From the NCBI GenBank assembly GCA_048886185.1, contig JBHLKY010000017.1, positions 38,559 through 70,558 of the forward strand: a stretch of DNA of 32,000 nucleotides, read 5' to 3'. The notes below the pieces were generated by a model that searched no databases, had not been told where the DNA came from, and saw only the letters and a program-made list of their open reading frames with translations. Numbering within the stretch: the stretch's first letter is position 1; every line of letters starts with the position of its first letter. The position numbers and the translations under genes were made by a program. Origin of the DNA: Candidatus Hermodarchaeota archaeon. Its GTDB lineage: Archaea > Asgardarchaeota > Heimdallarchaeia > Hodarchaeales > Hodarchaeaceae. Positions 1,567 through 4,702 of this stretch are shown piece by piece.

Positions 1567-3393
1567 TTGAAAGTTTACACAGCTGCTTTAATAGATAAAC
1601 CTTTGAGATCTATCAATAGAGATCTAAGTAAAAAAGTTACCTCGGATATTAAAAAGGCCTTAAATGTCAAGGGAAGTGCCATAACAAGTCAAGAATTAAA
1701 TACTTTTCTTTTTACTTCAGGAGAAACGAAAAATGGCACTCTTGATATTGGTGATCTGATTGAAAGGATCGAAAAAGGATCTGTTTATAATCGATTTGTT
1801 AAATATAACAAAGAAAATGAAACCCGTTTCAAACAGCTTCTGAATAATAATCAAGAATTACATGAAACTTCTCAAATTGTCAAGGATTTCATTAAAGAAA
1901 TTAATCCGGGCTTGCCCAAAAAACTGGAAAAAGAGTTAGGAAAAATTAAAACTGAATTACCAAGGATTTTTTGTGAACTCAGTACAAGAAGCTTTATTAC
2001 TCTCTGGGATCTTAATGAAACTCAGGATTATAGGTTTTATTTATCTGGATTTGATTTTCCTGTTTTTACTGGCAAAATGGATATTTCCATGAATATAGGA
2101 GATATAGTTGATCAGATTTTAATAGTCAATTTTTTCATGACATTCTTGAAACCAACAATTCAGCGTTTAGACAAGATGTATTCAATTCTTCACCAACTCG
2201 AACAGGAAATCTTGAAACAACATTATAGAACTAACAACCATAAACTTCAGTCCAAATTCGAACTTTTCCTGCGAATTTTAGTTGCTAAGTTGAGTGCATT
2301 ACAAGAGTTGGATAATCTAATCTATCGAATTTTGAATCTGTTTGACATTCCATTTATGTCCTTAACACAATACAACTTAAAAAGTGACTTTCTTGATTTC
2401 AACACAGAAATTACCAGAATATCAGAGGAGATCCAAGCTGGAAAGTCAAAACTTCATGAGGTTAGTGAGTTCATTCAACGGTGCCAATTATGTATTCGAG
2501 ATTACCTTGATGAAGGAATAAATGGAGTAAAAACAGCGGAATCCATTGAGGAATTTAAAAGCGCATTAACACCTGTGGGTGAATTAAGTGTAGATCTATT
2601 TGTAGAAGCTGAGATACTTAAAATTTGGTCAGATTACTTTGGTTCTGATCTACCATATTTTAGCTTTAATTCTCAATTACTTCATTCAACTGAAACTGAA
2701 GCAGAAGAAATTGACAGAGATGTAATACTTGCAGTAAGAGGCTTATATAAAAATTATAATTTAGGACGTAATACAGTTTATGCAATCAGAGGAGTGAATC
2801 TTGATATAAAGGAAGGGGAATTCGTTGCTATTGTTGGTAGTTCAGGAGCAGGAAAAACAACATTGTTAAACTGCATGGCAAGCTTAGATTCCCCTGATCA
2901 TGGAGCTGTGTATTTCCGTGGCAAAAATCTTCACCGAATGAAAGATTCTGAAAAATCTGAATTAAGATTAAAAGAAATGGGATTTATTTTCCAGAGTTAT
3001 GCTTTATTACCACATTTCAATACCCGAGAGAATGTTACTTTACCAGCAGACTTAGTTGGGGGATTAAGTAAAGGAATTAAGCGACGAATAGAAGATCTTC
3101 TCAAAGGAGTTGGTATTGATCAGCAAGCGAAACAATTTCCAGCACAATTAAGTGGAGGACAGATGCAACGTGTAGCAATCGCTCGCGCTCTCACTAATCG
3201 TCCTACAGTGATTTTCGCTGATGAACCAACAGGTGACCTTGATAGTATGACTGGCACTCAGGTTATGGAATTACTGAAGAAGTTCCATGAAGAAACAAAA
3301 ACAACGATCATAATAATTACTCACGAACAAGATATAGCAGCTTATGCCCAGAGGCAAGTCTTGATGGAAGATGGAATAATTTCACGTCATTAA
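1567..3393 (+). CDS. Fusion protein: unrecognised ~385-aa soluble helical domain + C-terminal LolD-type ABC ATPase
   Basis: C-terminal part (from ~2722) has [29 protein letters not shown]. The N-terminal 385 codons are stop-free with no TM segment. TTG start is supported by GGAGGA at 1555-1560. Confidence 0.88.
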
Positions 3394-3398
3394 TCAAG

Positions 3399-3421
3399 TA
3401 TTTATTTTTCCTCAGTACTTC
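3399..3421 (+). terminator. Possible archaeal oligo-T terminator after the ABC operon
   Basis: T-rich run (tatttatttttcctcagtacttc) immediately after TAA 3393; consistent with archaeal U-rich terminators but weak in an AT-rich genome. Confidence 0.25.
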
Positions 3422-3653
3422 TCTAGATATTTCATATAACTTAAGATGATTACAGCAGTTATGTTTAACACAAAGGGGAAGAAATAGAGAGAGAACAAGA
3501 TTACAGCCCTTTGAATCTTGATTGCGAATAGTCTATCTAGAAAGGCAATTAAATAGCATTGAGGTGTCATTTAGACATAATTGAGTAGTCTTTCACTCAA
3601 ATTCTCAGCCTTACTAATGAATTCATCTGAATCAAGTGAAAGGAGAATATCGC

Positions 3654-4628
3654 TTGAATAACCCGGATTATTTGACACGAATTCATTTGAAAGGTGCCGT
3701 ACCCATAATCTTTGAGAATCTTTTCAAACATTGCCCTACTAGAGAACTTTCTGGGGATTTTTTTGCATCTATTGGTTTCAATAAACCAGGAAAAGAGTTA
3801 AACATTCAAGGTAAAAAAGTTCAAGTACTTCTAATTAATTGTCAAAAATGTAATTGCCAAGATGATTATTCTGATTCAACAGTAGTATTTGTGAAACTAA
3901 ATGACAGAGGGAGCTTCAAGAAACTCAATAGCTATTTTAATTTAACTCAAAAGGTCAATGACAATTATAGACATCAAAGAACTATTATTGGATTGTTAGA
4001 GGAACCAGTGCAAGTTTCTCAAGCTGAAAGAGATGAATTAAGCACTAATAGAAACATAGAATATCATGAAATATCAGTCAATGAAATTGAAGACCTTGAG
4101 AAAATTCTTATTGATATAATAGAAAAGAGTCTTCTTCTTCCACAGTATTTATTAAAAATAGCTTGCTTAGGTTCGGAAAAAAAGACTTCAATCATTCACA
4201 ATTATGTCAAAGATAATTTAACTGCTGATTATTTACCAACATTAGGAGTTGATATTACTAATAAAAGATTAAATGTCCATGGAGTAAGAGTTGATCTAAT
4301 CATTGTTGATACAGCAGAGCAAAAAGACTTTGGAAAATTAAGACCAAATTACTATCGAGGGGCCAATGGTGGTCTGATTTTCTTTGATTTTGAAAGAGAA
4401 AAAAGTTTTAACGCTATCAGGGGGTGGATCAATGAATTTTCTACTTATATCAAAGATCCTATTCCCATCGCTTTAATTGGTATTGAGGGAGAAAGACAAA
4501 GAGTTCCTGTAAATGAAGCCAAGGCCTTAGCACAAGAATATAACATGGAATTTTATAAAATACAAAAGAACAAACCTAAATTAAATGAAATAGCCAAAAA
4601 AATAACTGAAATAATTCTGACCAATTAA
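3654..4628 (+). CDS. Tandem Rab/Ras-like small-GTPase-fold protein, both domains degenerate (pseudo-GTPase)
   Basis: Domain 2 (4146-4625): LKIACLG..KTSII, YLPTLGVD, LIIVDTAEQ, FGKLRPNYYRGANG, FFD...SF..I..W. Domain 1 (~3669-4133) follows the same secondary-structure pattern. Start set at TTG 3654 (AAGGAGA SD at 3640-3646); ORF track uses GTG 3636. Confidence 0.85.
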   Translation: MNNPDYLTRIHLKGAVPIIFENLFKHCPTRELSGDFFASIGFNKPGKELNIQGKKVQVLLINCQKCNCQDDYSDSTVVFVKLNDRGSFKKLNSYFNLTQKVNDNYRHQRTIIGLLEEPVQVSQAERDELSTNRNIEYHEISVNEIEDLEKILIDIIEKSLLLPQYLLKIACLGSEKKTSIIHNYVKDNLTADYLPTLGVDITNKRLNVHGVRVDLIIVDTAEQKDFGKLRPNYYRGANGGLIFFDFEREKSFNAIRGWINEFSTYIKDPIPIALIGIEGERQRVPVNEAKALAQEYNMEFYKIQKNKPKLNEIAKKITEIILTN

Positions 4629-4702
4629 AAGTATGTATACTCTTTCTGATAAAAGAGTCGTTCAACTTATAACAAAACAAATGAATTATTTACTGAATAT
4701 TG

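Follow-up and report, generated by a model that had tools for sequence, protein, structure and literature searches.

The window analyzed here is the whole 32,000-nucleotide (nt) stretch of contig JBHLKY010000017.1 (Candidatus Hermodarchaeota archaeon, Hodarchaeales; assembly GCA_048886185.1) between positions 38,559 and 70,558 of the forward strand. It encodes a protein made of two consecutive Rab-like G-domain folds in which the GTP-binding motifs are degraded in both halves. The genome of origin (4.84 Mb, 96% complete) contains 63 matches to Pfam Ras. The open frame extends from 3636 to 4628 on the + strand and, read from an in-frame GTG start at 3636, has 330 codons; this 330-amino-acid (aa) translation, P0001, supplies all residue numbers below. 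The likely start is the TTG at 3654, which gives a product of 324 aa. It is also the start in the database forms P0088 and P0089 (324 aa), and the relatives P0005 and P0006 begin at the equivalent position. The gene and the segments of its product lie as follows.

3654..4628, + strand: coding sequence of the tandem pseudo-GTPase (open reading frame [ORF] list and translation)
3642..3645, + strand: GGAG, Shine-Dalgarno-like, 8 nt 5' of the TTG at 3654 (read from the sequence)
3669..4130, + strand: N-half, aa 12 to 165, degraded G-domain fold with beta1-to-alpha5 order (AlphaFold2 [AF2], Foldseek, VIA-align, profile search, hhalign)
4146..4625, + strand: C-half, aa 171 to 330, Rab-like G-domain fold without a canonical nucleotide pocket (Pfam, PDB sequence matches, VIA-align)
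4170..4190, + strand: G1 remnant GSEKKTS, aa 179 to 185, two residues shorter than GxxxxGK[ST], Lys-Thr pair kept (Rab3B alignment)
4215..4256, + strand: switch I/RabF1 region NLTADYLPTLGVDI, including the G2 Thr, T202 (conservation and alignment)
4308..4364, + strand: G3 and switch II/RabF2-F4 region DTAEQKDFGKLRPNYYRGA, with Glu in place of the G3 Gly (conservation and alignment)
4482..4493, + strand: IEGE, aa 283 to 286, at the G4 position, where NKxD is expected (alignments; NKCD in Rab3B)
4551..4568, + strand: FYKIQK at the G5 position, where ETSAK is expected (alignment)

A preliminary description of this gene had proposed a tandem Rab-like protein, and the strings that it quoted are all present in the translation. 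Those of the first domain are RIHLKG (aa 15 to 20), ASIGFNKPGKELNIQGKKVQVLLI (44 to 67), VVFVKLNDRGSFKKL (83 to 97), VSQAERDEL (127 to 135), and EYHEIS (142 to 147), and those of the second are GSEKKTS (179 to 185), YLPTLGVD (199 to 206), DTAEQ (225 to 229), LRPNYYRGA (235 to 243), and IEGE (283 to 286).

Predicted folds and motif state of the two halves

The whole protein matched Pfam Ras (PF00071) at 113.1 bits against a cut-off of 21.6, and the match came from aa 183 to 325 of the C-half (E = 1.2e-32), which also matched Pfam Roc (1.3e-15). The best solved relatives of the C-half by sequence were Rab3B, Rab3D, and Rab21, with Rab3B at E = 1.6e-20 and the others weaker. Superposition of the predicted C-half on solved Rabs with VIA-align gave Z scores of 20 to 22 and root mean square deviations (rmsd) of 2.1 to 3.0 Å over 155 to 165 residues; all folds reported here are predicted models, judged against the G-domain plan of a six-stranded sheet and five helices.

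None of the motifs by which a functional GTPase is recognized (G1, the DxxG of G3, and G4/G5) is found in the C-half, which has GSEKKTS, DTAEQ, and IEGE and YKIQK in their places. The shortened P-loop and the loss of NKxD and SAK that had been claimed for this domain are evident in the alignment to Rab3B, where LGSE--KKTS stands against IGNSSVGKTS with a gap of two residues. The second Walker Gly is gone from the remnant and a Glu (E181) is present. In the AF2 model, helix alpha1 begins at residue 182 and strand beta1 ends at 179, i.e., two residues earlier. Read by eye, the C-half carries the RabF motifs LGVDI (F1), IIVDTAEQ (F2), and YYRGA (F4), and its best PDB matches are Rabs; these RabF-type motifs fit an archaeal Rab-like consensus rather than a eukaryotic Rab subfamily. 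The C-terminus (EIILTN) lacks a Cys prenylation motif, the last Cys being residue 177. This had been noted before and is correct, but it is uninformative because a C-terminal Cys is absent from all archaeal Rab-like proteins (PMC4915359).

The N-half is the more degraded of the two. Its P-loop position is taken by hydrophobic residues (GAVPIIF), and it has a short loop (CQKCNCQDDYSD) in place of the switch II helix, TIIGLLE at the G4 position, EYHEIS at the G5 position, and no equivalent of the G3 DxxG. On its own it scored 16.9 bits against Pfam Ras (E = 0.0049, aa 81 to 164), below the cut-off of 21.6. Folded alone by AF2 from 15 sequences, it gave a mean predicted local distance difference test score (pLDDT) of 90.6 and a predicted template modeling score (pTM) of 0.86, as expected from the earlier proposal that this domain adopts a G-domain fold. 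The model lacks helix alpha2 and has an extra short strand and helix between beta1 and beta2. Foldseek matched it to Rab1, Rab11, and Rab8 in the PDB (E = 2.4e-7, TM 0.57 to 0.65). VIA-align placed it on Rab and Ras structures at Z scores of 12.4 to 13.2 (133 to 148 residues, rmsd 2.7 to 4.6); all 1,000 re-aligned neighbors had Z scores of at least 8, and the 50 matches listed were all Ras-superfamily G domains, the best at Z = 13.2.

Sequence profiles lead to the same place. When a profile built from seven N-halves was run against 1.84 billion representative proteins, eight proteins scored E < 1e-30, five of which were full-length family members of 322 to 382 aa. Below these came bona fide Ras/Rab proteins aligned end to end, which Pfam also assigns to Ras (1e-45); one example is P0052 (E = 4.6e-10; query 7 to 167, target 4 to 175). 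A comparison of the N-halves with the C-halves by hhalign was collinear over 153 columns (probability 96.4%, E = 1.1e-9). Because the profile search, the alignment to the C-half, and the predicted fold agree, the N-half is, as judged from sequence profiles and the model, a degraded G domain homologous to the C-half.

The whole chain, modeled by AF2 from an alignment of ten relatives, reached a pLDDT of 82.3 and a pTM of 0.78, and each half follows the order beta1-alpha1-beta2-beta3-beta4-alpha3-beta5-alpha4-beta6-alpha5. A pTM of this size for a two-domain chain suggests that the halves pack against each other in a defined way. The only stretches of three or more residues with a pLDDT below 50 were the N-terminus, aa 194 to 202 (switch I), and aa 229 to 232 (switch II), which fits flexible elements that would become ordered on a partner. 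Fold searches with the whole model against solved chains returned none that spanned both domains at once.

Family, selection, and descent

The full-length relatives of the tandem protein are P0003 to P0008, P0040, P0041, P0043, and P0044, with C-half identities of 37 to 66%, and P0009 is a partial one; all named relatives come from Hodarchaeales/Hodarchaeota metagenome-assembled genomes. Each of these proteins, P0009 included, has the shortened P-loop, which in P0006 is short by one residue and not two, and none has NKxD or SAK at the aligned positions. The G3 position is more variable. Its Gly is replaced by Glu in P0001, P0003, P0004, P0008, and P0040 and by Ser in P0006, P0041, and P0043, and the motif reads DTAGQ in P0007, P0009, and P0044 and DTAGE in P0005. 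The reported change of DTAGQ to DTAEQ thus holds for the window protein, but by this alignment it is not a feature of the family.

Conservation within the C-half, expressed as the mean frequency of the top residue, was highest in the G3/switch II segment (0.88) and next highest in switch I (0.84), and it was lowest at the G5 position (0.43) and in helix alpha5 (0.42). This pattern lends support to the retention of effector-facing switch surfaces that had been read from the single sequence. Ratios of nonsynonymous to synonymous substitution rates (dN/dS) were calculated for three independent pairs with unsaturated dS of ∼0.14 (P0003/P0091, P0004/P0094, and P0005/P0095); distant ortholog pairs were excluded, as their dS was saturated (1.1 to >3, or undefined). 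The ratio ranged over the three pairs from 0.17 to 0.27 for the whole gene, from 0.21 to 0.42 for the N-half, and from 0.11 to 0.17 for the C-half. The pooled values were 0.23 (Fisher P = 9e-19), 0.32 (P = 5e-7), and 0.15 (P = 2e-14), respectively, and purifying selection acts on both halves. Since the relatives share the short P-loop and the loss of G4 and G5, since none has an intact G1-to-G5 set, and since dN/dS is low, the motif loss is, on these comparisons, not a lineage-specific decay, and the expectation that it would be conserved among orthologs under purifying selection was borne out.

Within the window's GTDB genus, 4 of 22 genomes have true N-half orthologs (>190 bits), one of them in two copies. 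In the rest of the phylum (378 genomes sampled) none turned up, whether in the order's two remaining genera or among 376 additional genomes. The more divergent family members come from metagenome contigs. The family is real, selected, and narrowly distributed, comprising one genus and its metagenomic relatives.

The nearest paralog of the C-half in its own genome is a canonical Rab-like protein of 178 aa that is 48% identical (G000:C6:207322-207762, corresponding to L018 1492-2028). Its GSGSVGKT, DTAGQ, NKKD, and SAK motifs are all intact, and its switch sequences, NYLPTLGVDITTK and DTAGQEFFGKLRPSYYRGAS, are almost those of the C-half; DTAEQKDFGKLRPNYYRGA of the C-half is nearly identical to the paralog's DTAGQEFFGKLRPSYYRGA. 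In a motif table of 46 relatives, few have all motifs (the own-genome paralog, P0014, P0017, P0020, and P0029). Most of the 46 no longer have G4 and G5 but have a P-loop of full length, in which another residue often stands for the second Gly (GSGDVQKT, GSGSVEKT, GSPSSNKT). Maximum-likelihood analysis placed the canonical members at the base of the tree and gathered all forms without G4/G5 into a single clade of 38 rows (support 88/90), within which the tandem C-halves fall. The free tree does not recover the tandem C-halves as monophyletic, and the approximately unbiased (AU) test does not reject their monophyly (P = 0.115). Motif and tree comparison trace the C-half to a single canonical Rab-like lineage of Hodarchaeales. 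The decay looks stepwise, with guanine recognition by G4/G5 lost first in a large clade and the P-loop shortened later in the tandem family. The two-residue P-loop deletion and the N-half are specific to the tandem family and are not found in the single-domain forms of the clade (L016, L015, P0057, P0059), which have lost G motifs and kept an LRPSYYRGAS-type switch II.

Several other proteins of these groups were recorded. P0012 (GSWDVGKT), P0018 (GSGSVGKS), and their relatives belong to the clade without G4/G5 and have a canonical P-loop, the switch I Thr, and DTAGQ without NKxD or SAK; from these motifs they are candidate phosphate binders with altered or no base specificity. Two single-domain, Rab-derived pseudo-GTPases of the same clade are encoded in the same genome, one of 188 aa (L016 1489-2055, − strand, on G000:C46) and one of 177 aa (L015 1432-1965, + strand, on G000:C12), with GNHTQLQT and SHPEELVS at the P-loop and no NKxD. 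Other degraded tandem Ras-like proteins of 322 to 349 aa exist, namely, P0010/P0011, P0055/P0061, and a 332-aa frame at G057:C259:1304-2215. The N-half profile does not retrieve any of these as orthologs. They look like separate families, and Hodarchaeales thus seem to have evolved the tandem pseudo-GTPase architecture on more than one occasion.

Genomic neighborhood and related loci

The tandem gene follows an ABC ATPase gene that ends at 3393, and the 260-nt intergenic gap between them argues that it probably has its own promoter. A gene for an M48-type peptidase starts at 4700, 72 nt 3' of the tandem gene. The upstream row FtsX-ABC-ABC (608 aa) is found in the window and at three loci of relatives (L010, L011, and L013), and the downstream M48 peptidase is found in the window and at L013; neither was seen at L006 or L012. 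A SelR gene intervenes at L010 and L013, and the tandem gene has an upstream gap of 240 to 330 nt. The arrangement, with FtsX-ABC-ABC upstream and an M48 peptidase or an aldo-keto reductase downstream, is thus common to the closer relatives only and is rearranged among them. We rejected it as an operon or functional clue and read it as residual synteny among close kin.

The ABC ATPase itself (window 1567-3393, + strand) stands after a normal ABC ATPase and an FtsX permease and has an N-terminal extension of ∼400 aa without a Pfam match; this 608- to 611-aa form is kept at L010, L011, and L013. A 52-aa hydrophobic ORF on the minus strand of the intergenic gap (3412-3570) was discarded as probably spurious. 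A 52-aa ORF is called at the same place at L010, and the two products are unrelated.

Five Ras-matching frames of ∼290 to 330 aa in the same genome (L001 to L005; G000:C17:27500-30500, C6:87000-90000, C30:9500-15500, C4:29000-32000, and C14:4000-7000) were considered as tandem paralogs and rejected, being Arf/Rag-like G domains with a longin/roadblock-like C-terminal domain. One of them lies ∼9 kb upstream of the window.

The canonical paralog of the C-half lies in a tight three-gene row (L018 516-2819, which is G000:C6 ∼206337-208640) that is kept in two other assemblies, at L028 3023-5335 and L029 155-1488. The first gene encodes a 317-aa protein with an N-terminal gelsolin repeat, a Pro/Thr/Ala-rich linker, and a conserved C-terminal domain without a Pfam match. 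It is followed, after a gap of 22 bp, by the Rab-like GTPase gene and then by a gene for a 250-aa MglA/Arf-like GTPase (FWGPTLAGKTT, TVPGQ, LNKMD). From its gene content, the row may be a module of small GTPases and an actin regulator. Predictions of a complex between the full tandem protein and the gelsolin-domain protein scored 0.37, 0.00, and 0.00 in separate runs, values that have no bearing on binding either way.

Mode of action and biological meaning

In the classification of Stiegler and Boggon (PMC5593906, Table 2), a class i pseudo-GTPase is marked by a GTPase fold with degraded G motifs and by a biochemically demonstrated lack of nucleotide binding; on the predicted folds, the tandem protein has the former. 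We give a probability of roughly 0.6 to the reading that it is a pseudo-GTPase of this type, in which two G-domain folds of a stand-alone protein lack a workable guanine-nucleotide pocket and a fixed Rab-like face binds partners without nucleotide switching. Binding of this kind is the most likely mode because the face formed by switch I, the interswitch, and switch II, which carries the RabF motifs, is what selection appears to keep best. The C-half would present this face to the partners of its canonical relatives and could act as an adaptor or a competitor; both that role and the identity of the partners are speculative. The N-half would be a second, family-specific binding or stabilizing module packed against the C-half, and the retained K183, T184, T202, D225, and T226 would now form part of an internal network.

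The main argument for a loss of nucleotide binding is geometric. In a Walker A loop, GxxxxGK[ST], backbone amides wrap the beta-phosphate, and we know of no functional P-loop NTPase in which the loop is shorter than this. Because the loop of the C-half is two residues short, we infer from the alignment and the model that the tandem protein does not bind nucleotide. The model, in which alpha1 follows beta1 after two residues, recalls by analogy p190RhoGAP pG1, whose phosphate cavity is occluded by an extended alpha1 (PMC5593906).

Several observations weigh against this interpretation. K183, T184, D225, and T226 show no variation across the 11 aligned sequences of the family, conservation reaches ≥90% at T202 and A227, and most members retain Q229, although C-half identities are only 37 to 66%. 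In a working GTPase, the positions of K183, T184, T202, and D225 are ligands of phosphate and Mg. Their retention is not what a long-dead pocket predicts and may signal a bound phosphate ligand. The G3 Gly is intact in P0005, P0007, P0009, and P0044. The family is present in only 4 of the 22 genomes of the genus and is thus dispensable for most relatives, and the neighborhood, kept only in close kin, does not point to a partner. The C-half might therefore still hold a phosphate-bearing ligand, either a nucleotide bound without base specificity or a phosphate/Mg2+ group, through K183/T184, T202, and D225, and be a loaded switch that does not cycle or cycles slowly (class ii or atypical, like the Rnd proteins) with the N-half as a built-in regulator. 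Sister groups in the clade without G4/G5 have full-length P-loops, some of them canonical (P0018, P0012), together with DTAGQ, so the loss of NKxD and SAK would not at once have freed the phosphate ligands from selection. We nevertheless consider a live pocket unlikely, if well worth keeping in mind. No functional precedent is known for the two-residue shortening, and alpha1 starts two residues behind beta1 in the model. The remnant has lost the second Walker Gly and contains E181, the window protein has Glu for the G3 Gly, and guanine could not be recognized with G4 and G5 absent. The conserved Lys and Asp may instead form a salt bridge, as they do in nucleotide-free complexes of GTPases with guanine nucleotide exchange factors (GEFs).

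Two simpler accounts fare much worse. The gene might be a decaying duplicate, i.e., a pseudogene in the making or a functionless, lineage-specific wreck of a tandem Rab gene, as its patchiness within the genus and the somewhat higher dN/dS of the N-half (0.21 to 0.42) might suggest. However, every relative found has an uninterrupted frame, even at 37% C-half identity, dN/dS stays well under 1 for both halves in all three independent pairs, one motif state is common to all members, and both halves have confident predicted folds, which makes decay very improbable. Even less credible is the idea that the N-half is an alpha/beta (Rossmann-like) module of unrelated origin joined to a Rab-like domain. 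It draws on the subthreshold Pfam match, which covers aa 81 to 164 only, on the missing alpha2/switch II, and on the extra strand and helix between beta1 and beta2. It has to contend with the end-to-end profile matches to true Ras/Rab proteins, the collinear alignment to the C-half, and a structural neighborhood in which every match listed was a Ras-superfamily G domain.

The tandem protein can be compared with three kinds of known systems. The canonical Asgard Rab-like lineage ("YLPTLGVDIT / DTAGQEFFGKLRPSYYRGAS"; the own-genome copy, P0014, P0017, and P0020) has the same fold as the C-half, nearly the same switch I, interswitch, switch II, and RabF-type residues, and likewise no C-terminal Cys. 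Its members are single-domain proteins of 178 to 188 aa with GSGSVGKT, DTAGQ, NKKD, and SAK, encoded in a conserved operon with the gelsolin-domain protein and the MglA/Arf-like GTPase, whereas the window protein has the P-loop deletion, no G4 or G5, and an extra degraded G domain and stands alone. Published class i pseudo-GTPases, which do not bind nucleotide, include p190RhoGAP pG1 and pG2, CENP-M, and fungal dynein light intermediate chain (PMC5593906, Table 2) and AAGAB (PMC12490416). The pG1-pG2 pair resembles the window protein in consisting of two successive Ras-like folds whose G motifs are all or mostly degraded (PMC5593906), both are presumed to serve in scaffolding or interaction, and in pG1 the phosphate cavity was lost by a change at the junction of P-loop and alpha1. 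The p190RhoGAP domains are eukaryotic and lie inside a large multidomain RhoGAP, whereas the window protein is archaeal, free-standing, and 324 aa long and arose on its own, far more recently, from a Rab-like paralog. Unlike pG1, the C-half of the window protein retains the Lys/Thr/Thr/Asp phosphate ligands along with a switch sequence of the Rab type. No p190RhoGAP chain was among the PDB sequence or fold matches listed, which were mostly Rabs, and the likeness is one of architecture only. CENP-M and the N-terminal domain of AAGAB use a G-domain fold without nucleotide for protein-protein interaction, the type of function proposed here; they are single, eukaryotic pseudo-G domains, unlike the archaeal tandem protein. 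AAGAB contacts its partner by a surface other than the switch face (PMC12490416), whereas the switch face is the conserved one in the window protein. The retained K183, T184, T202, and D225 keep class ii, too, a candidate assignment on sequence grounds.

Small GTPases of Asgard archaea are studied as forerunners of eukaryotic trafficking and signaling switches. Published accounts of pseudo-GTPases cover eukaryotes and, as one summary has it, bacteria (PMC12490416). Our literature search found no paper joining them with Asgard archaea, and the survey of Asgard small GTPases by Tran et al. (2024) does not mention tandem, pseudo, or degenerate forms (PMC10933270). The results presented here suggest that a canonical Rab-like lineage spawned selected, switchless derivatives, some of them tandem, in which the partner-binding face was kept. 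If this is true, regulation by "dead" paralogs, a typically eukaryotic layer of signaling, would already be present in the closest archaeal relatives of eukaryotes. The tandem protein is small and soluble-looking and has an intact paralog as a natural control, which makes it a convenient bait for effectors and regulators of Asgard Rab-like proteins.

A bolder version, which we regard as a long shot, is that Hodarchaeales repeatedly made nucleotide-free mimics of one Rab-like switch, as single-domain proteins and in at least three separate tandem forms, whose frozen faces compete for or scaffold the canonical partners. The tandem protein would then be a constitutive "on" or "off" decoy of a canonical GTPase that is encoded beside a gelsolin-domain protein and an MglA-like GTPase, and it would provide a prokaryotic precedent for pseudo-enzyme control of a small-GTPase/cytoskeleton circuit.

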